Shown here: piece by piece, positions 6,027-47,639 of the stretch
How the letters are laid out: every line of letters begins with the position of its first letter
Position numbering within the stretch: the first letter of the stretch is position 1
The notes under the pieces: model-generated
Told to the model about the DNA's origin: nothing
The model's input: the letters and a program-made list of their open reading frames with translations, nothing else
Database searches by the model: none
Made by a program: the position numbers and the translations under genes
NCBI GenBank assembly: GCA_965248265.1
Contig: CBDFJF010000002.1
Coordinates: forward strand, 3,456,001-3,520,000
DNA from: Candidatus Latescibacterota bacterium
GTDB taxonomy: Bacteria > Latescibacterota > UBA2968 > UBA8231
Reading direction: 5' to 3'
DNA length: 64,000 nucleotides

Positions 6027-7135
6027 TACACGCTGGTTATTTGTTCGTCGAAGACCTTGAACTTCTTGGCAATGATGTCGTCTCGGGTGGTCATGTAGCG
6101 GCGGGTCATTTCAATCTTGGCGTGACCCAACAGCCGCTGCACCTCTTCCAGCTTCAGTCCCGACTCACACCAGCGGGTGGCCGCCGTGTGGCGCAGCATG
6201 TGAAAGTGCACGTGGCCGATGCCCGCCGCCTTGCCCGCCGTTTTGAGCGAGCGCTGGATGTTGATGTGGGGCAACGGCGGTAAGTCGCGCTGGTTGGAGA
6301 GGGCCAGCGCCGCCCGTTCGCGCAGCGCTTCGCGCACCCGGCTGGTCATGGGCACGTGGCGCTCGCGCCCGGTCTTGGTCCCCTTGCCATCCCAGGAGTC
6401 GTTGACCAGGATGCGGTTGCCCTCAAAATCTACCTTCTCCCAGGTCAAACTCATCAGCTCGCCGCGCCGCAAGCCGGTATCGACGGCCACCATGGCGATC
6501 AGGTGGGCATGGGGGCTGTCCTCGTTGCCTGCAAGCTGGGCCAACAGCTGGGCTGTTTGCTGTTCGGTCAGCGCCCGCGCCTCCACGTCCATGTAGTCGG
6601 GCTCGCGCTGCCGCTGCAGGCAGCGGGGGCCTGCCGGGTTGGTGCGGATGAGCTTTTTCTTATAACACCAGCCAAACAGGGCCGCCAAGCATGTTACCAT
6701 GGTATTGTAGGCCGAGGCGGACAGCTCCTGGTCTGGGTCTTTGAGGGGTTCCTGCTCATCCAACCAGTCCTGCAGGCGGGGGGTCGTCAACGAGCGCAGC
6801 TGCGTGGTGCCCAGCTGCGGCAGCAAGCGAGCGCTGAAGAAGTAGCGGTACGAACTCCAGGTGATGGGCCGCCACTGGTCGTACTCCTTCTCGAAGCGCA
6901 CCAGGGCTTGGGCCACGGTGATGGAGGATTCGCTGACAAACTCGCCCTTGTGCTCCAGCTCGTCGTTGATCTGGCGGGCCACGCGGGTGGCCCCGGTGAC
7001 ACTCATGCACTCGGTGTTGTGCTGGCGCTTGCGCCCGCCGTCGCGCCAGTGGGCCTGCCACACCCCCGTGCCCTTCGACTGCTTGAGGCGGACCCGGCCC
7101 ACACGGTGGGCTTCGGGTTGCTTATCCTGCCCCAT
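6026..7135 (-). CDS. int: Phage tyrosine integrase
   Basis: TGLRRGEL, TKTG, HMLRH, LGH, TRRY catalytic motifs and an N-terminal arm-binding-like segment; start moved to ATG 7135, which follows AGGAGG. Confidence 0.95.
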   Translation of the reverse strand: MGQDKQPEAHRVGRVRLKQSKGTGVWQAHWRDGGRKRQHNTECMSVTGATRVARQINDELEHKGEFVSESSITVAQALVRFEKEYDQWRPITWSSYRYFFSARLLPQLGTTQLRSLTTPRLQDWLDEQEPLKDPDQELSASAYNTMVTCLAALFGWCYKKKLIRTNPAGPRCLQRQREPDYMDVEARALTEQQTAQLLAQLAGNEDSPHAHLIAMVAVDTGLRRGELMSLTWEKVDFEGNRILVNDSWDGKGTKTGRERHVPMTSRVREALRERAALALSNQRDLPPLPHINIQRSLKTAGKAAGIGHVHFHMLRHTAATRWCESGLKLEEVQRLLGHAKIEMTRRYMTTRDDIIAKKFKVFDEQITSV

Positions 7136-7363
7136 GATGTATGTTCCTCCTGTTGTGAAAAGCGACCCCGTTGGGGGCTCGCCGTTGACGCTAACACGAA
7201 TCAATATACGATGAAAAAAGCCCGAGCGCATCAAAAAAACTGCCGAATTGCTCCCGTTTCCACCGTGCGTCTCTCTCTGAGGGCCATTGCGCCAGGGCAT
7301 GAAGTGGCTATGGGGCAGGCAGGTGATAAGTGACTGTGTTTCATCTGGTTTACAGAGGTTGGA

Positions 7364-7438
7364 GCGGGAGTAGCTCAGGGGCAGAGCACGAGCTTCCCAA
7401 GCTTGATGTCGCGGGTTCGACTCCCGTCTCCCGCTCCA
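7364..7438 (+). tRNA. tRNA-Gly(CCC)
   Basis: Acceptor stem GCGGGAG/CTCCCGC, anticodon arm CGAGC-TTCCCAA-GCTTG, T-loop GGTTCGACTCC, encoded CCA. Confidence 0.95.
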
Positions 7439-7499
7439 GTAATTCTCCTTCGATGTATTTCATCCCAGTGCCCTACCTCCCTCTCGTTGAGAGCCTGTC

Positions 7500-24088: not shown

Positions 24089-24139
24089 GTGTGTTCGTTA
24101 AGGGGGGCATTCGATGCAGGCAAGGAAGAAAGAGCTGAG

Positions 24140-27100
24140 ATGAGCCAGGTACAAGAAACCAGTCGAGGGGGGGGATATACCTATCGTGAACTCGAGGCCA
24201 GGTGGCGCGAGCACTGGCTAAGTCACAAGACCTTCAAGACCCTGGTGCCTGGCGATGAGGGTTACGATCCAGAAAAGCCGAAATACTACGTCCTCGACAT
24301 GTTTCCCTACGCCAGCGGCACGGGGCTGCACATGGGCCATCCCAAGGGCTACATCGCCAGCGACATTTACTGTCGCTACAAGCAAATGCAGGGATTCAAC
24401 GTGCTGCATCCGATGGGCTTCGACAGCTTCGGATTGCCGGCAGAGCAGTTTGCTCGAGAGAACAACGTCCATCCGGCGCAGGCTACGGAAAAGATCATCG
24501 GGGTCGTTCGCGAGCAGCTCCAGATACTGGGCATGGCGTATGACTGGGACCGCGAGATCGCCACTTCACGGCAGGATTATTACCGCTGGACGCAGTGGAT
24601 CTTCCAACAGCTGTTCCACAGCTGGTTTGATCCTCACCATGAGTGGCAAGATGAGGCAGGCCGTGCCGTCACAGGCAAGGCGCGGCCGGTGTCTGAGTTG
24701 TGCGACGAGTTCTCCACCGGTAGCCGATCTCTGACTGACGATGATCTGCTCAGCGTCAGCTCAGACGCTGACGCGTCAACGCCTCCTGCCTGGAGCTCAT
24801 TGGACGAGGCCCAACGAGCTGCCGTGCTCAACAACTACCGAATCGCCTATCAGAAGGAAGTGACCGTCAATTGGTGCCCGGGACTCGGAACGGTCCTGGC
24901 CAACGAGGAAGTCACGAACGAGGGCAGGAGTGAGCGCGGAGATCTCCCGGTCTACACACGTCCGCTCAAGCAATGGGTGATGCGAATTACCGCGTATGCT
25001 GACCGTCTTCTGGAGGATCTGGTCGCCGTCGGCATGCCAGACGGCAGCGGAGGTACCTACCAGCTCGACTGGCCCGAAGCGATCAAGCTCATGCAGCGCA
25101 ATTGGATCGGACGCAGCACGGGTGCCGAGGTGCTGTTCGACGTGCCGGAGCCGGGGTCAGAAAATGATGAAGTGTTGACCCGCCTGAATGTGTTCACCAC
25201 GCGACCTGATACTCTCTTTGGTGCGACGTTCATGGTCGTGGCTCCCGAGCATCCATTGCTGGACGAAAATGAGCCAGAGTTCGCGGTGCCGACGTCGTGG
25301 CCTGATGGCACCAATTCCGCCTGGAAGGGGGACGATCCCTCGCTCGAGATCCGCGATGCGATCTCTACCTACGTCGAGACCGCCGCCGCTCGCACTGCCC
25401 ATCAGCAGCGTACGGAGCGTGAGAAAAGCGGCGTCTTCACGGGAATCCTCGCGCAGAACCCGGTTAGCGGGGCGATGATACCGATCTTCGTAGCCGACTA
25501 TGTCTCCATGGACTACGGCACCGGAGCTATCATGGCGGTGCCGGCTCACGACGAGCGCGATCACGAGTTCGCACAAAAGTACGAGCTCGACATTGCGCAG
25601 GTCGTGAGTCCGAGGGACGGCGCTGAAGAGAGTGACGCATGTTTCACGGGGGAGGGGATCGCGTGCAATTCCCCCCAGGGTAGTGACAACTCTCCGTACG
25701 AGATCAACGGTCGCCCCACGGCGGATGCAATCGCCCACATCACGGAAGCGCTCGAACGCGAAGAGGTCGGAAGCGCAGCGGTAAGTTACAAACTGCGTGA
25801 CTGGATCTTTTCTCGACAGTGGTACTGGGGTGAGCCGTTTCCGCTGGCAACGCACCCGGATGGCTACTCCGTGTCGACGGAAGTCCCCGTCATCTTGCCC
25901 GAGATGGAGGACTTTCAACCCAAGATATCGGACGATCCAAACCACCCTATCTCACCCCCCTTGAGCAGGGCAGGGAATGAATGGCTGGACGTAGAAGTCG
26001 ATGGCATAGTATGCCGAAGGGAGCTCGACGTTATGCCTCAGTGGGCCGGCTCCTGCTGGTATTATTTGCGTTTTATCGATCCCCACAACAGTGAGACCTT
26101 CTGCGCCGAAGATGCCGAGCGCAGTTTCATGCCGGTCGACCTTTACATAGGGGGAGCTGAGCATGCAGTCCTGCACCTGCTGTACGCGCGTTTCTGGCAC
26201 AAAGCACTGTTCGATCTTGGCCACGTATCGACACCCGAGCCGTTCAGGAAGTATTTCAACCAGGGCATGATCACGGCCGATGCCTTCGCTGACAGCCGGG
26301 GGACGTACGTCGATATCCGCGAAGTTGATATTCGTGACGGCGAGCCGTTCCACTCCGAGACGGATGAGAAGCTCACGCGATTTGCCGGCAAGATGGGCAA
26401 GCGCTACAAGAACGGCCTGCCACCGGAAGAGGTCGGAGCCGAGTACGGGATCGATACCTTACGGCTGTACGAAATGTACATGGGACCACTGGAGGCGAGT
26501 GCACCCTGGAGCATGGAAGGGATTCGTGGCATGCAGCGCTTCCTCCACAGAGTCTGGCGCAACTTTGTCGATCGCGATGGCTCGCCGAAGGTGACGGAGG
26601 AGGGCGCAGAAAACGGTAGTGGCAGCGACTCTGAGGATCTCCCAAAGCTCCTGCACAAAACCATCGACAAGGTCACCGCTGACATCGAGGAGCTGCGCTT
26701 CAACACTGCTATCGCCGCCCTCATCGAGTTCAACAACGCCCTGGTCAGCCGCCAATCGGTGCCCAGAGTGATCGCTCAGGATTTCATTCGACTGCTGGCG
26801 CCCCTGGCACCACACCTGGCCGAGGAACTGTGGGAGCGATGGGGATTCGGATCCGGCGACATCTCGCGTCAAGACTGGCCCGAGGTTGACCGGAACGTTC
26901 TGGTGGAGGAGACCTGTGTATTGCCTGTGCAGGTAAATGGCAAAGTCAGAGCCAGTATCCAGGTCCCAGTCGAAATTTCAGATGGCGAGTTGCGTCCGAT
27001 CGTCCTGGATCTGGAAAACGTGCGCCGGCATCTACCCGACTCAGGCGAAATCAAGCGCTTCATACTGGTGCCAGGAAAAATCGTCAACATCGTGGCCTGA
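24140..27100 (+). CDS. leuS: Leucine--tRNA ligase
   Basis: MFPYASG, HMGH, FTTRPDT, GGAEHAVLHLLYARFW, KMGKR; start set to ATG 24140. Confidence 0.97.
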   Translation: MSQVQETSRGGGYTYRELEARWREHWLSHKTFKTLVPGDEGYDPEKPKYYVLDMFPYASGTGLHMGHPKGYIASDIYCRYKQMQGFNVLHPMGFDSFGLPAEQFARENNVHPAQATEKIIGVVREQLQILGMAYDWDREIATSRQDYYRWTQWIFQQLFHSWFDPHHEWQDEAGRAVTGKARPVSELCDEFSTGSRSLTDDDLLSVSSDADASTPPAWSSLDEAQRAAVLNNYRIAYQKEVTVNWCPGLGTVLANEEVTNEGRSERGDLPVYTRPLKQWVMRITAYADRLLEDLVAVGMPDGSGGTYQLDWPEAIKLMQRNWIGRSTGAEVLFDVPEPGSENDEVLTRLNVFTTRPDTLFGATFMVVAPEHPLLDENEPEFAVPTSWPDGTNSAWKGDDPSLEIRDAISTYVETAAARTAHQQRTEREKSGVFTGILAQNPVSGAMIPIFVADYVSMDYGTGAIMAVPAHDERDHEFAQKYELDIAQVVSPRDGAEESDACFTGEGIACNSPQGSDNSPYEINGRPTADAIAHITEALEREEVGSAAVSYKLRDWIFSRQWYWGEPFPLATHPDGYSVSTEVPVILPEMEDFQPKISDDPNHPISPPLSRAGNEWLDVEVDGIVCRRELDVMPQWAGSCWYYLRFIDPHNSETFCAEDAERSFMPVDLYIGGAEHAVLHLLYARFWHKALFDLGHVSTPEPFRKYFNQGMITADAFADSRGTYVDIREVDIRDGEPFHSETDEKLTRFAGKMGKRYKNGLPPEEVGAEYGIDTLRLYEMYMGPLEASAPWSMEGIRGMQRFLHRVWRNFVDRDGSPKVTEEGAENGSGSDSEDLPKLLHKTIDKVTADIEELRFNTAIAALIEFNNALVSRQSVPRVIAQDFIRLLAPLAPHLAEELWERWGFGSGDISRQDWPEVDRNVLVEETCVLPVQVNGKVRASIQVPVEISDGELRPIVLDLENVRRHLPDSGEIKRFILVPGKIVNIVA

Positions 27101-27148
27101 ACATCAGCAACGGCCGCGCTTTGCCTGGTTATTTTCACAACAAACAGT

Positions 27149-27176
27149 ATGCCTTATAAGTTATTTTATGTCATTT
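27149..27176. other. dif-like 11-6-11 site
   Basis: ATGCCTTATAA-GTTATT-TTATGTCATTT, with inner ATAA-N6-TTATGT as in dif sites. Confidence 0.5.
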
Positions 27177-27352
27177 ACGGTGAAAACGTATGGTCTTTCA
27201 TGCTGAATAAGTTCGGCCTTTCGTTGGCAACGATCGCTGGGTCCTATTCAATGCACAATGTCGCATAAAGTACAACATTATGTAGCGTTTCAGATTGCGA
27301 TCAGGCCTCATCGTTCCGCACGTGACTCTAGCTGCTCGCCTCCGGAATGCGG

Positions 27353-28390
27353 CTACGGGACCCGGATGTAGTCGGAGGCGTTGTCGGTAAGACGCTCACG
27401 GTTCTCGTAATACCGCATCGTCGTTTTCAAGTCCTTGTGTCGCAGGTGCGCCTGGACTTGCTGCGGCTTGGCTCCGCCCTCAATGGATAGCGTGCAACAG
27501 GTGTGCCTGAACATATGAGCAGTTACTTTATGGTCGAGTCCCGCGCGTAGTGCATACTTCCTGGCAATGTGGTTGACCGACTGATCCGAGAGGGGTTTTC
27601 CGTGTGACTGATTGCGGGACAAGCTGATAAAGGCTTTTCCTCCGTTGGCGTCGTATCCGTGAGCCAGCAGGACATCCCGGTATTGTTGTAGGAAATGGAC
27701 GACGACCGATTGGAGTTTGATATCCTGCGGAACACCGGATTTCGTCGTCGGTAGCGACAGTATGTAGAAGGCGCCGTCTTGAGAGAGGTCTGCCCAGGAG
27801 ATATTGGCGACTTCGGAGCGCCGCAGTCCGCCGTAAGTGAGCAGGTACAGGATGGCTTGATCCCGTGCCCGATGCAGTTCATCTTCCTCCTCTTCCACGG
27901 CCTTGAAGATCTGCTGGAGGCGCCTCTGGTCGATGGATTTGCCGGCCAGGGTTTCGTCCACCCGAAAGCCTCTGACAAGCGTTGAATCAGCAGGATTCTG
28001 TTCGATTACCTGGGCAGCGATCATCATCCGGAAAAACGCCTTCAGGCTCGAGAGTTTGCGATTTATGGTCGTGCGTTTGCGGCCGAGAGCCGCAAGGCCG
28101 TTGCGATAGTCTATGATGTCGGTGAAGGTGATGGCACGCACATCTGCCGGGGTTATCCGGTCAGTGTCGAAAAACTCGCAAATATCTGCGTAGTAAGCTT
28201 TTCTCGTTCTCTCAGTGAGCTGACCAGCGAGAAATTGGCCGAGGGGATCTTCCTCGATTTTCCTCAGCGCACGATTCTTCGGTACGCCGTCTTTGGCGTC
28301 CTTTACAACGGCAATTTCCACAGGATCGTGTCCTACTGTCGTAATCGCGGACGGAATGAATCCACTGGGAAGGCTGCACGGGGACGCCAA
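27353..28390 (-). CDS. Xer-type tyrosine recombinase
   Basis: N-terminal core-binding domain (TRKAYYAD, TINRKLSSLKAFF); catalytic GLRRSE, TKSG, HMFRH, LRH, TMRYY; start uncertain. Confidence 0.93.
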   Translation of the reverse strand: MASPCSLPSGFIPSAITTVGHDPVEIAVVKDAKDGVPKNRALRKIEEDPLGQFLAGQLTERTRKAYYADICEFFDTDRITPADVRAITFTDIIDYRNGLAALGRKRTTINRKLSSLKAFFRMMIAAQVIEQNPADSTLVRGFRVDETLAGKSIDQRRLQQIFKAVEEEEDELHRARDQAILYLLTYGGLRRSEVANISWADLSQDGAFYILSLPTTKSGVPQDIKLQSVVVHFLQQYRDVLLAHGYDANGGKAFISLSRNQSHGKPLSDQSVNHIARKYALRAGLDHKVTAHMFRHTCCTLSIEGGAKPQQVQAHLRHKDLKTTMRYYENRERLTDNASDYIRVP

Positions 28391-28646
28391 ATATACAGAG
28401 GTCCTGAAGATTCGTCACTTAAAAACATATCTAAGGACATGAGGAGAATTGCAGAAAGCGGCCGATAAGTGTGGGAAAAGCGTCTATAAGTGAGAAAATC
28501 AGGCTGGCTTTCTTTGGCATCCTTTGGGCGATAACGATCGAGTTGACATTTTCGTTAGTATACTAGATTTAAATTTGCCCTATATAAAGCCACTGAACCT
28601 GTTGCTATTAAATGACATGTGACATTAGGTCTTATCTATACCCTTA

Positions 28647-28674
28647 ACTAACGATAACAAGAATTATCGTTAGT
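28647..28674. other. Perfect 11-6-11 palindrome, candidate recombination site of the adjacent recombinase
   Basis: ACTAACGATAA-CAAGAA-TTATCGTTAGT in an AT-rich intergenic region. Confidence 0.75.
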
Positions 28675-28826
28675 ATAATATTAGTATGGTTTGAGCACTA
28701 ACGGGAGGATTAGAGTCTCTTTCTGACTGCAGGACTCGCCAGCTCGCTTGTGTACATAAATTGAGTTATGCGACACAATGTTCACTCGGACGACCTAGAG
28801 TATGCTTCGGATGCGCTTTGAACTCT

Positions 28827-30617
28827 TCAAGTACGTCCAAACAGTTTGTCGAACTCGCGCAACGGGATCTTGACGAAAATGGGTCGTCCATGTGGACACA
28901 CAAACGGTTCTTTAGCCTGAAGCAGTCGCCCAATCAGCGTTTTCATCTGCTCTGCGGAGAGCCGCTCTCCGGCTCTGATCGAGGTGTGACAGGCCATCGA
29001 GGCCGCAACGGCCTCCCGCAGATGGGCCCGCACCTCGATTTCCTCCAACAATTCACCAATAATGCTGTGAAAGATCTCGCCGTCATGCCAATTCTTGAGT
29101 TCCGCCGGAACGGATTCGACGCGAAGCTCATTTGGCTTGGTGGTCTCGATCTCGAAGCCAATTTTCTCGAAATAATCCTTGGCCTCGGAGAATGCGTCCA
29201 TTTCGACGGGACTTAATTCCACGACAATCGGAAACAGGAGCCGTTGTGAGGAGGCTCCCTCGGCCTCCATTCGGTCCAGAACCTCCTCGAAACGCACCCG
29301 TTCGTGAGCAACATGCTGGTCGATGACGAGGAGGCCATCCGGAATCAGCGACAGGATGTACTTGCTGTGAACCTGCCATAACACTGCCTCAGAGCCGTGG
29401 GGGAAAAGGGCGCTGTCAGGATCCCCCTCCCCTTCTGCCGTGTTGGCGGTACGTGGAGTCAGCGGTATTCCCTTCAGTTGGGACGGCGCCAGCAAGGACA
29501 GGGACATCTGGGGTTCCTGTCCCGGCGAATCGGAGTTTTCTGGTTGATACGGAAGGAACGCAGGCCTCGGCTCTCCAGCTATCGATGCACCATCCGAAAT
29601 CGATGCAGGAAGGAACACGGTGCCCCTGTTGGGGGCGGTCTCTAGAGCACGCTGCACGGCCAGACACACAGCATCACGAACCTCGCGGATGGCGCTGAGC
29701 TTCACCTCGCGCTTGGTGGGGTGAACGTTGACGTCCACCTGACGCGGATCCAGGTCCAGCCACAGCACGAAGAGCGGATGTCGACCGTGAGGCAGCAAGC
29801 CGCCAAAGGCTGTGTAGATGGACTGATTGATCTCGCGCGAGTACACGGGACGTCGGCGCACCACGCAGAACTGCTTGGCGCGCGATTTCCTGCATTCTGC
29901 CGGTGTCGACATCCACAGCTCAGCGGTGATTCCATCCTGGTGTGTGGTGGCATGGAGCAAGTCTGTCCCCGGCAGGCCAAGTATGTCAGCAGCTCGGTCC
30001 TCCTTGCTTCCTGAACGCAGGTCCAGGGTTGTCCTGTCCTCGTGCTTGAGCTGGAAAGCAACCTCAGGGTACGCGGACGCGAGTTGAATGACGGTCTGCG
30101 TCACGTACCTCGCCTCAGTTTCCGCATGACGCAGAAACTTTCGGCGCGCCGGCGTGTTAAAGAAAAGACTGCGTACTCCAATGGAAGTCCCCACGTTTCG
30201 AGCAGTGGCGCCCAATTGGCGACGGATACCCCCTTCGATGACGAGGCGGGTGCCCTCCTGTTCCTCTCGCCAGCGCGTGTCGATGGTCATGCGCGATGCC
30301 GCTGCGATGCTGGCCAGGGCTTCGCCGCGAAAGCCAAGGGTGTCGATGTCGAACAGATCGGTGGGACCCCTCAATTTGCTGGTCGCATGACGTTCGACGC
30401 ACAGTTCCGTGTCCTCTCGTGACATCCCGGAGCCGTCGTCGGAGATGACGATACTCTGCCGACCTCCAGCACCGATTTCGACCGTTACTTTCCCGGCCCC
30501 TGCATCCAGAGAGTTTTCGACGAGTTCCTTCACCACGGAGGCCGGCCGGTCCACGACTTCGCCCGCGGCGATCTTGCTGATCACGTTCTCAGAGAGGATG
30601 TGGATTCTTGTGGTCAT
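28827..30617 (-). CDS. mutL: DNA mismatch repair protein MutL
   Basis: [33 protein letters not shown], endonuclease motif DQHVAHER, ACH, CPHGRP. Confidence 0.98.
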   Translation of the reverse strand: MTTRIHILSENVISKIAAGEVVDRPASVVKELVENSLDAGAGKVTVEIGAGGRQSIVISDDGSGMSREDTELCVERHATSKLRGPTDLFDIDTLGFRGEALASIAAASRMTIDTRWREEQEGTRLVIEGGIRRQLGATARNVGTSIGVRSLFFNTPARRKFLRHAETEARYVTQTVIQLASAYPEVAFQLKHEDRTTLDLRSGSKEDRAADILGLPGTDLLHATTHQDGITAELWMSTPAECRKSRAKQFCVVRRRPVYSREINQSIYTAFGGLLPHGRHPLFVLWLDLDPRQVDVNVHPTKREVKLSAIREVRDAVCLAVQRALETAPNRGTVFLPASISDGASIAGEPRPAFLPYQPENSDSPGQEPQMSLSLLAPSQLKGIPLTPRTANTAEGEGDPDSALFPHGSEAVLWQVHSKYILSLIPDGLLVIDQHVAHERVRFEEVLDRMEAEGASSQRLLFPIVVELSPVEMDAFSEAKDYFEKIGFEIETTKPNELRVESVPAELKNWHDGEIFHSIIGELLEEIEVRAHLREAVAASMACHTSIRAGERLSAEQMKTLIGRLLQAKEPFVCPHGRPIFVKIPLREFDKLFGRT

Positions 30618-45988: not shown

Positions 45989-47206
45989 CTAGCCGAAAAG
46001 CGCGTCGATTTCGTCCTGGCTGATCGACTCTTCGTCGTCTTCGGAGTCTGCGTCTCCCGTATCATCATCTTCTTCAGCGGCGATCTCTTCTCCATCGCCA
46101 TCTTCACCGCCGCCATCTTCATCGAGCAGAGCACTCATCTCGTCCTCTGAGATGCCAGCTCCGTCCGTGTCCTCTTCCTCCTCTGACTCTTGGATCAATT
46201 CTGCCAGGTCTTCCTCGCCGTCGTCTTCTTCTTCCTCCTCCTCGAACAAGCCATCCAGCTCGACGTCTTCCTCTTCGTCCTCCGAGGAAGCGTCATCTGA
46301 TTCTGGTGCCTCTTCTTCGAGGAGATCTCCCAGATCCACATCCTCGTCGGCCATGTCGTCGTCGTCAACGCCTTCCATGAGCTCGGCCAACTCCTCGTCA
46401 GAGGAGTCGTCCTCATCTGAATCTCCGTCTCCTGTATCGGCGGCGTCCTCGTCGACTTCGACCTCTTCAATCTCCTCTTCTTCAATCTCTTCTTCACCGT
46501 CGGCGGTCTCAGCCTCGCTCACGGCTGCTTCGCCTACATCTGCCTGTTCCAGCGCTTCCGCCGCTTCCATCGCGGCCGCGGCTTCAAGCGCGTCGTCCTC
46601 GTCCAAATCCTCCGACTCATCGATCATCTCTGCACCGATGGAGTCCACGTTTTCCTCCTCCTCGACTCCTTCCTCCTCTATCTCGATCTCCTCCTCAAGT
46701 TCAAATTCCTCGTCGTCCTCTTCATCCTCCTCGAAGAGTTCGTCGATATCCTGAACCGTTTCAGTGGATCCGGAGCCGGCTTCGAAAAGAGCATCGATAT
46801 CGCCTTCCTCGGAAGGCTCTGTATCGTCGAACAAGGTATCAAGGTCACTCTGGTCAACGGATTCGAGGGCCTCTTGCTCTTGAGGCAGCATCGAGGGAGT
46901 TTCGGCTATGGAAAGAGCACCCTCTGTGCCCCCCAGCAGACCACGCAGTGATTCGAACTCGCTGTGAAGCTTGTCCCACTGATCCGCCGTCGAAGACTCG
47001 GACAGGACACCAGCGCTACGCCGCACAAATTCGATGACGTGATTCATGTGTGGAAACGCGTCTTCGAAGACAAGAAGGTAAGCCTGGACCTTTTCGTCGT
47101 GAATATTCTTCTTGATTTGATCAAACCAGAGGTTGTTAAACAGTTTCGCCAGGGCCTCGAGAGCCTCCAGGCGGCTGACCACCTCTTGTAGTTCTTCTTT
47201 GTTCAT
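45989..47206 (-). CDS. Highly acidic low-complexity protein with repeated D-I-D-x-L-F-type motifs
   Basis: Helical N-terminus of about 100 aa, D/E-rich tail ending ISQDEIDALFG. Confidence 0.85.
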   Translation of the reverse strand: MNKEELQEVVSRLEALEALAKLFNNLWFDQIKKNIHDEKVQAYLLVFEDAFPHMNHVIEFVRRSAGVLSESSTADQWDKLHSEFESLRGLLGGTEGALSIAETPSMLPQEQEALESVDQSDLDTLFDDTEPSEEGDIDALFEAGSGSTETVQDIDELFEEDEEDDEEFELEEEIEIEEEGVEEEENVDSIGAEMIDESEDLDEDDALEAAAAMEAAEALEQADVGEAAVSEAETADGEEEIEEEEIEEVEVDEDAADTGDGDSDEDDSSDEELAELMEGVDDDDMADEDVDLGDLLEEEAPESDDASSEDEEEDVELDGLFEEEEEEDDGEEDLAELIQESEEEEDTDGAGISEDEMSALLDEDGGGEDGDGEEIAAEEDDDTGDADSEDDEESISQDEIDALFG

Positions 47207-47639
47207 GATTTCTGCCCCTGAGTAGTCGGCATCTCAGTGTCACTTTGGACGGTTGCCAAAGCATTCCAACCCGCCGTAGACTTCCCCGCGCTTGCTTCAG
47301 CAAGATCTGTACCGCGACTTCCAGGGTTCGCTATCGACTCCCACGGTGACTGGTGTGGAACACGATGATGTCGTTGTGACATCGCCGCACTCCATATCTT
47401 GGGGTGTGGGCATCATGACCGGCCAAGATCATCAACCTGAGACGGCCGGTACATATTTCCCGAGTGCCCCAACCAACGGACAAGCTTCCTCCTCCCCTTC
47501 CCCACCATTGCGACAACTCCAACGGCCACAGGTCCTTGTCTGACCTAATATAATAACACCGAAGGCCTCGCCGACCCACTTTTTCCCTGACCTGCCCGAA
47601 TCGGGTCGCGATGGGGATTGAATCAAGGCTTTTCCCTCC

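Follow-up and report, generated by a model that had tools for sequence, protein, structure and literature searches.

The textbook bacterial chromosome carries one dif site, served by XerCD or by one substitute enzyme, and in phage P1 one recombinase and one palindromic site, Cre and loxP, resolve dimers without FtsK. A site adjoining its own recombinase gene is a hallmark of XerS and XerH, according to the excerpted text of PMC5357621. In the XerL system, as far as the accessible part of PMC9765430 describes it, the dif arms are long uninterrupted inverted repeats, one recombinase is used and the site lies at the GC-skew maximum. In Acinetobacter plasmids, inversely oriented pdif sites bound modules of the C and D types and inversions have been observed experimentally (PMC13141974, in excerpt); inversion between such sites is reported for an Acinetobacter chromosome too (PMC12907356, in excerpt). 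Here we describe a locus in a 64,000-nt stretch of DNA from a Candidatus Latescibacterota bacterium (the window), where a tyrosine recombinase gene (rec) and a perfect palindrome (PAL) stand side by side at the chromosome terminus, between two inverted dif-like sites. With about even confidence, we regard rec and PAL as a self-contained third Xer-type recombinase-plus-site cassette, which would sit as a D-type dif module in the chromosomal dif and provide a second crossover site for dimer resolution.

The window corresponds to C2:3456001-3520000 in a genome of 7.32 Mb, assembled in two contigs (C1 and C2) with 59.6% G+C. Pfam searches of its open reading frames (ORFs) place rec between leuS on the plus strand and mutL on the minus strand. 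The features of the locus, in window coordinates, are as follows.

27353..28321, minus strand: rec, Xer-family tyrosine recombinase by its Pfam domains; 322 aa as publicly called, with the start at 28321
28647..28674, palindromic, no strand assigned: PAL, the proposed core site of rec, ACTAACGATAA-CAAGAA-TTATCGTTAGT; perfect 11-6-11 geometry, 0 arm mismatches
27149..27176, plus strand: dif-like site A, ATGCCTTATAA-GTTATT-TTATGTCATTT; the look of a canonical XerC arm, 6-bp spacer and XerD arm, with the TTATGT arm toward rec
28749..28776, minus strand: dif-like site B, on the minus strand GTGTCGCATAA-CTCAAT-TTATGTACACA; inverted relative to site A, with the TTATGT arm facing rec
28549..28559, plus strand: isolated copy of the PAL arm, TTTTCGTTAGT, with 1 mismatch; between PAL and rec, 88 nt from PAL
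24089..27100, plus strand: leuS, leucyl-tRNA synthetase (Pfam tRNA-synt_1_2, tRNA-synt_1, Anticodon_1); outside the module, syntenic in related loci
28827..30617, minus strand: mutL (Pfam MutL_C, DNA_mis_repair, HATPase_c_3); outside the dif pair in this genome

The two flanking sites stand out from the rest of the genome. With a weight matrix built from 46 such dif-like sites of other species only, site A ranks first genome-wide (31.4 bits) and site B third (20.9 bits); an earlier matrix that included a site of the genome itself gave the same rank order for both. The comparison set consisted of 41 related genomes from four families of the class, 16 of them outside the family that bears rec. 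The strict motif ATAA-N6-WTATGTMAA, which sites A and B of our genome do not themselves fit, occurs in 33 of the 41, among them all 16 rec-less genomes from outside the family, against 0-1 matches per strand for a reversed control of the motif. Because the dif motif is present in 16/16 genomes without rec, it is independent of rec and presumably belongs to XerCD. By the same comparison, and from the look of the sites, the XerC-like and XerD-like proteins described below would be the ones that act at sites A and B.

The arrangement seen in the window recurs across related species. A species-level scan with one genome per species recovered 57 rec loci at 57-74% identity, after which identity drops to <=32%, the sole exception being a short 62-residue match at 45%; the scan ran on two peptide patterns and therefore favours close relatives. 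The loci come from metagenome-assembled genomes labelled Candidatus Latescibacterota and, in some cases, Gemmatimonadetes. Site A (>=17 bits, same orientation, <=900 nt past the rec stop) is present at 46 of the 57 loci, with four further loci carrying a site in the other orientation and three having <100 nt of flank on that side. Site B, in the opposite orientation upstream of rec, is found at 34 loci, where 49 of the 57 have >=2900 nt of upstream flank, and its position varies among lineages. Both sites, inverted, are found at 31/57 loci; there, as in the window, the segment is bounded by two inverted 11-6-11 sites of the XerC/XerD type, which is one of the marks of a dif module. By analogy with the Acinetobacter nomenclature, the rec cassette would be classed as a D module. 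Sites A and B share one spacer in 5 of the 31 loci; L041, L046, L047, L052 and L064 have such identical spacers. Nine loci (L042, L044, L045, L046, L048, L056, L062, L065 and L074) carry one more dif-like site on the far side of leuS, ~2900-2970 nt beyond the rec stop and oriented as A is, with another spacer (e.g. GGATAA) and a TTATGTCAA-type arm, so that leuS lies there between two directly repeated dif-like sites.

What lies next to each site changes between relatives in the manner of an inversion. The dif pair encloses mutL in 24 loci; in nine, mutL lies outside the pair, which is also the arrangement of the window. Site A is adjoined by leuS in 42 loci and site B in eight, all eight of which belong to the group with mutL inside. 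On a tree of rec and mutL, the side occupied by leuS requires at least five changes among 20 labelled genomes, four of them forced by well-supported branches, and sisters differ; the tree contains 22 of the 24 mutL-inside loci, L048 and L054 being left out for want of a scored site A, and two of its rows are unlabelled. In all three sister pairs compared by blastn, the inner segment is collinear at 96-97% identity, while the flanks are exchanged and reverse-complemented. The overlaps are confined to ~40 nt at the dif-like sites, which places the breakpoints within the sites in 3/3 pairs. On these comparisons, the flank exchanges are site-specific inversions at dif sites, which have occurred at least five times in close relatives, and inversion by crossover inside the flanking sites, another mark of a dif module, is seen here on comparative evidence.

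The locus lies at the terminus of the chromosome, as the original prediction, made from the window sequence, had proposed. The maximum of the cumulative GC skew falls on C2, at 3.49 Mb when computed in 10-kb steps and at 3.486 Mb when computed in 1-kb steps, with the palindrome at C2:3484647; dnaA (C1:2962995-2964449) lies at the minimum, C1 2.96 Mb. If C2 is assumed to follow C1, the distance from the origin to the locus amounts to 0.494 of the chromosome. In 10/10 complete relatives, for which the terminus was judged by dnaA antipody only, the orthologous locus lies 0.470-0.496 of the chromosome from dnaA. The convergence of plus-strand and minus-strand genes that had been noticed at this point is also real: with few exceptions, long ORFs lie on the plus strand up to 27097 and on the minus strand from 27356 to ~57758. 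The recombinase between leuS and mutL was likewise correctly described as having no mobile neighbours. No transfer RNA (tRNA) gene is close to rec, the sole one in the window being a tRNA-Gly at 7364-7438; none of the 16 Y2_Tnp matches of the genome falls within the window; and Rfam gives no match across 26800-29200 at E up to 1.

The rec product is a two-domain protein with Pfam Phage_integrase (7.6e-28) and Phage_int_SAM_1, and its open frame extends beyond the called start to a TTG at 28390 (27353-28390, 345 aa from TTG). Against the NCBIfam models it scores 119.5 bits for XerC (TIGR02224, cut-off 335.15) and 114.6 bits for XerD (TIGR02225, cut-off 329.6), both far below cut-off, and 69.5 bits for XerS (cut-off 267). 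The catalytic residues R190/R191, K217, H292, R295, H318 and Y327/Y328 (R, K, H-x-x-R, H, Y) are invariant among 19 orthologues, as is the C-terminal tail, and rec has the catalytic R-K-H-R-H/W-Y set of single-recombinase Xer systems. The nearest solved structures are a chain of 9i5v (401 residues, deposited under the name 'Ribosome-associated translation inhibitor RaiA', E = 2.3e-13), then XerD 1a0p (E = 2.4e-11), a transposon Int and XerA; these matches give no functional discrimination.

Of the 24 genomes from the same family, 18 have exactly one rec match (57-73% identity); at E <= 1e-20 the 16 genomes from the three other families of the class gave none. At the 34 loci carrying both genes, the pairwise distances of rec and leuS correlate with a Pearson coefficient of 0.96 and a Spearman coefficient of 0.77 (561 pairs, which are not independent), and the largest negative residual of the relation is -0.12. 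Averaged over the same loci, the distance is 0.305 in rec, 0.316 in leuS and 0.46 in mutL. Because rec diverges in step with leuS and equally slowly, it is inherited vertically, not swapped about, and is as constrained as leuS. A collection of 72,556 plasmid records holds no close relative of rec, the best identity being 30%.

The palindrome is as perfect as first described. The genome contains 18 perfect 11-6-11 palindromes, so the geometry alone is not rare, and the importance of PAL therefore rests on comparison across species. None of the other 17 has ATAA/TTAT inner arms, and at <=6/22 arm mismatches relative to the window copy PAL is found upstream of rec in 52/57 species loci, which agrees with the expectation that gene and palindrome would be conserved together. 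Its distance to the gene ranges from 92 to 2532 nt across loci; in 44 of the 52 it lies 92-233 nt before the aligned protein start, and in the largest subgroup its right arm abuts the ATG of rec. Across the 52 species the arm consensus ACTAaCGATAA / TTATcg.TAGT carries 1.4-2.0 bits per position except at arm position 5, the spacer carries 0.5-0.9 bits and the flanks mostly 0.1-0.5 bits: conservation is limited to the arms. PAL has in this respect the form of a lineage-conserved core site of inverted arms around a short centre, as in single-recombinase Xer systems. Its spacer occurs in both orientations relative to rec, as CAGGCA in 22 loci and as the complement TGCCTG in eight, with TACCTG in five; between the sister genomes of L063 and L064 the PAL spacer differs and the mutL-side flank differs too. 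A function of PAL as the transcription terminator of mutL was considered and rejected: it is AT-rich, has no T-run and is unlisted in the terminator scan.

Two observations concern further copies of the site. The isolated arm copy at 28549-28559 stands just after a TTGACA and could be a putative accessory binding site. In one relative (G008), two more near-perfect palindromes of the PAL type occur distant from the terminus, at C1:191343 and C1:4492316 (L110 5344 and L111 5317), one of them 460 nt upstream of an IS110-family transposase and the other amid fragments of a Mutator-family transposase and a helicase.

The original prediction had further taken rec for a lone recombinase with its own dif, a lineage-specific single-Xer module, and here it is not supported. 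Fifteen matches in the genome exceed the Pfam Phage_integrase cut-off, and three of them outscore rec against the models of XerC and XerD. One of the three, XerD-like (267.6 bits), adjoins uvrC and has a single orthologue in 39/41 related genomes, spread over all four families; another, XerC-like (193.8 bits), lies between topA and hslU and has a single orthologue in 33/41. Both candidates are also under the NCBIfam cut-offs, as are those of most control genomes, only 4 and 3 of 14 passing. A single-recombinase system is expected to be the sole Xer system of its genome, with neither a XerC/XerD pair nor a canonical dif, whereas rec coexists with these two genes and is flanked by canonical-looking dif sites. 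Nor is the presence of a dif peculiar to the lineage, the dif motif being present in every genome of the sister families that lack rec. Canonical XerCD/dif elsewhere in the genome had been named in advance as a finding that would refute the proposal; a canonical-looking XerCD/dif does exist, but its dif is at the rec locus and not elsewhere. Of the single-Xer reading, the terminus position and the conserved pairing of site and gene are supported, and the lone system is not.

The third Xer-like gene, at C1:1754216-1755118 (L006 4214-5119, minus strand), was tried as a housekeeping Xer and rejected, being integron-integrase-like and patchy (11/41 genomes). It scores 239.6 bits on TIGR02249, against a cut-off of 265, has counterparts of 80-86% identity in other genera, and is probably carried on a mobile element or integron.

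Two complete chromosomes of the same family, G015 and G017, have no rec orthologue, and leuS and mutL are still neighbours in both. In the 1.25-kb interval between the two genes, dif-like sites are accompanied by another tyrosine recombinase (309-319 aa), whose catalytic motif we take to be Cre-like; in G017 this gene has its own ATAA-N6-TTAT palindrome just upstream. The Cre-like family is patchy and multicopy, with seven matches in G015 and members in another family. The occupant of the slot differs in these two genomes; rec itself is always at this locus and has no close relative in the plasmid collection.

In the mechanism that we favour, each of the identical 11-bp arms of PAL would bind one rec monomer around a 6-bp crossover region, and two PAL sites would synapse as a rec homotetramer. 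The cassette would be housed in the terminus dif locus, between inverted canonical dif sites served by the XerC-like and XerD-like proteins. Recombination between these inverted sites would flip the module and could not excise it, and the cassette would stay in place for that reason. The pair of rec and PAL would then supply a second, self-contained crossover site for chromosome dimers, in the manner of Cre/loxP, XerS/difSL and XerH/difH. We infer from the sequences that rec acts at PAL, and that it serves the host because it is vertically inherited and constrained like leuS. Position, geometry and the parallel Cre-like occupant are the grounds for proposing a second crossover site, and a role in dimer resolution is, on these grounds, probable.

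Several findings weigh against this interpretation. An intact XerCD/dif leaves no obvious need for a second resolution site, and no rec orthologue was found in 6/24 genomes of its own family, two of them complete chromosomes with another recombinase in the slot; rec can be lost or replaced. PAL itself was not found in 5/57 loci: in two the flank is shorter than 200 nt, the copy in L033 is degenerate, and none is present in L070 or L072. In our genome PAL is 326 nt from the called start of rec, and the presence of its arm at the ends of elements of the insertion sequence (IS) family IS91, described below, raises the possibility that something other than rec reads the arm. As for the flanking sites, B is weaker than A here and their spacers are unlike (GTTATT vs CTCAAT); because the spacers differ, inversion at A and B may have ceased in this genome and the module may be frozen. 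Four sequencing runs of one sample, which contain the locus as contigs, present it in a single form; a unitig covering 26387-30518 has neither a variant nor a strand-switch joint, an outcome that is uninformative on rare inversions. In five seawater runs, fewer than one in ten of the sequence words sampled were present. Kinship among the genomes means that the counts overstate the number of events. Finally, the conserved TTATGTAAA-type arm is assumed to be the XerD arm by analogy with characterised dif sites.

The PAL arm is not confined to the terminus. At <=1 mismatch the 11-nt arm occurs 78 times in the genome, many times at the ends of IS91-family elements. Many of these copies are part of imperfect 11-6-11 sites, each at the tip of an element of ~2 kb with a gene for a Y2 HUH transposase (Pfam Y2_Tnp); the sites lie downstream of that gene and abut host genes that are truncated (to ApbA_C only, or to the C-terminal half of UxuA). 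Across the related genomes, the half-pattern ACTNNCGATAA-N6-TTAT occurs in 15/41, all in the rec-bearing family, and in 0/16 outside it, with a reversed control of ~0. Y2 transposases occur in 13/41 genomes, G015 and G017 among them; the two full-length Y2 elements inspected in G017, which lacks rec, have no PAL-like end site. Judged by eye, PAL arms and IS-end arms show no clear co-variation across genomes, and none of the 16 Y2 matches of our genome adjoins a tyrosine recombinase. According to the accessible part of PMC13181058, the oriIS ends of the IS91 family carry subterminal palindromes. Some IS91 members carry tyrosine recombinases (10.1101/542381, in excerpt). PAL does not qualify as such an end, the window having no Y2_Tnp match and PAL being syntenic between mutL and rec in 52/57 species.

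Arm copies also cluster elsewhere on C2. The segment C2:1134276-1156234 (L001 covers 1132000-1151000) is an array of seven copies of a ~300-nt IS91-like end in the same orientation, 1.3-5.7 kb apart, with metabolic genes between them, several truncated exactly at the repeat; at one junction the other IS end directly abuts the next copy. The array looks like the outcome of repeated one-ended rolling-circle capture. At C2:3430611-3431505 (L002 5612-6506), 25 kb before the window, four arm copies in the same orientation lie within 900 nt, and ATAA-N6 precedes three of the four. The small ORFs around them match no family, and a weak Mu Gam-like ORF lies alongside; a further mobile element using the PAL arm may be present here.

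Other readings of the locus have to be set against ours. The cassette could be a hitchhiker, a plasmid-type multimer-resolution unit or mobile dif-module cargo that entered by XerCD-mediated exchange and persists, unexcisable, without benefit to the host. Its architecture does match the dif modules described in the literature, so far as the excerpted sources show, an unrelated Cre-like cassette from a patchy, multicopy family holds the same slot in two genera, and the position of site B depends on the lineage. A trapped neutral gene would, however, be expected to decay and an exchanged one to decouple from leuS, whereas rec is single copy, co-diverges with leuS (r = 0.96), is conserved like leuS and more than mutL, and has nothing closer than 30% identity on the 72,556 plasmid records; we find this account doubtful, although it deserves to be taken seriously. 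That rec and PAL are instead the single-recombinase dif system of the lineage, replacing XerCD, would accord with the terminus position, the site beside the gene and the identical arms, and with the higher identity of rec (57-74%) than of the XerC-like and XerD-like proteins (41-50%) in the same genomes. Against it stand the retention of XerC-like and XerD-like orthologues in nearly all relatives, the canonical dif sites at the very same locus with their recent site-specific inversions, and the dif motif kept by sister families in which rec was not detected, and we consider it very improbable indeed.

PAL might also be an operator, bound by rec or another dimeric regulator, that controls rec transcription, with the real substrates of rec elsewhere, at sites A and B or at IS91-like ends. 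Binding at PAL must affect expression where the palindrome abuts the start codon, as it does in the largest subgroup, and the arm recurs beside TTGACT-like boxes in repeated elements; yet the 11-6-11 geometry with ATAA/TTAT inner arms is that of a Xer core site, the distance to the gene varies from 92 to 2532 nt, and promoter-like matches in 27000-29000 are at chance level (2 vs 2.0 expected), none overlapping PAL and the only one near the rec start, at 28418-28390, lying ~230 nt from the palindrome. We think an operator quite improbable. The same low standing applies to a direct link with IS91, whereby rec and PAL would be a domesticated IS-associated recombinase and its site, or the elements would mimic PAL at oriIS to exploit rec. 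The imperfect sites at Y2-element tips abutting truncated host genes, their restriction to the rec-bearing family, their absence from the two elements inspected in G017 and the tyrosine recombinases reported in some IS91 members (10.1101/542381, in excerpt) all point that way. But palindromes of the HUH transposase itself are normal at such ends (PMC13181058, in its accessible part), which leaves a recombinase unneeded, 0/16 Y2 matches in the genome adjoin a tyrosine recombinase, arm co-variation is not clear, and the co-occurrence may reflect shared ancestry. A broader picture combines several of these elements: the terminus would be a cassette slot, where XerCD uses a split, inverted dif both to resolve dimers and to flip or swap the resident cassette, rec and PAL work independently of XerCD, and IS91-like elements borrow rec through PAL mimics at oriIS. 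Taken as a whole it strikes us as unlikely; if true, the mimicry of PAL would amount to an IMEX-like hijack, and the hijackers would be transposons of a class in which the use of Xer-type enzymes is not known.

Some further features of the window and the assembly were observed apart from these questions. On the minus strand at 6029-7459, a phage-type integrase in a 477-aa frame (Pfam Phage_integrase, 119 bits) adjoins the tRNA-Gly gene (anticodon CCC; 7364-7438, plus strand), which suggests that the window begins with an integrated element in its first 7 kb; G+C there falls to 0.53 between 3 and 5 kb. A sharp anomaly of composition is seen at 46001-47000 (GC skew -0.266, AT skew -0.289), over a minus-strand ORF at 45992-47233. 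The same sequence occurs near the end of C1 and near the start and the end of C2 (C1:3173914, C2:4818, C2:4137002), which makes it probable that C1 and C2 together form a single circular chromosome, interrupted in the assembly at a repeat several kb long.

Set beside the described systems, the rec locus shares parts with several and coincides with none of those considered here. The dif modules of Acinetobacter (PMC13141974 and PMC12907356, both in excerpt) likewise have two inverted 28-bp sites of the XerC/XerD type, inversion, and a D module with internal XerD arms. The module described here belongs to another phylum and occupies the main chromosomal dif at the terminus, not plasmid or secondary sites; it is vertical through the depth of the family, and its cargo is a recombinase with its own site in place of resistance or toxin-antitoxin genes. 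In the portions of the literature that our searches reached, dif modules are described only in Acinetobacter, neither Xer nor dif is treated for Latescibacterota, and a recombinase cassette flanked by inverted dif sites of the chromosome is nowhere reported. The idea of dif modules would thus extend beyond Acinetobacter, with the main chromosomal dif itself modular and invertible in this family.

The palindromes at the oriIS of IS91 elements (PMC13181058, in its accessible part) lie at the tip of the element, downstream of the transposase gene, and in this genome share one arm and the 6-bp spacing with PAL. PAL differs from them in its two identical arms, the lack of a nearby transposase, its fixed syntenic position and its family-wide conservation. 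Modules of the Cre/loxP type are, like the pair proposed here, a self-contained recombinase and palindromic site, although rec is nearer to XerD (1a0p, E = 2.4e-11) than to Cre. The XerL/dif system of Legionellales resembles PAL in its uninterrupted inverted arms at the skew maximum; xerL, however, is >400 kb from dif in an order without XerCD homologues, as reported in the accessible part of PMC9765430, while rec abuts PAL in a genome where XerCD-like genes exist.

There is a likeness, too, to XerS/difSL of streptococci and lactococci and XerH/difH of Helicobacter and Campylobacter, which also have an inverted-arm site beside a Xer gene at the terminus, and from whose sites PAL differs in arm sequence and 6-bp spacer (PMC5357621, in excerpt). 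XerS and XerH replace XerCD, whereas the genome that bears rec keeps its XerC-like and XerD-like genes together with canonical dif sites. A family of an uncultured phylum retains XerCD along with two, sometimes three, terminus dif sites in alternating orientation and a strongly conserved third recombinase with its site between them. It offers a natural case for asking why a cell keeps two systems of the dimer-resolution type side by side, and it cautions against taking every recombinase with a palindrome at the terminus for a single-enzyme dif system.

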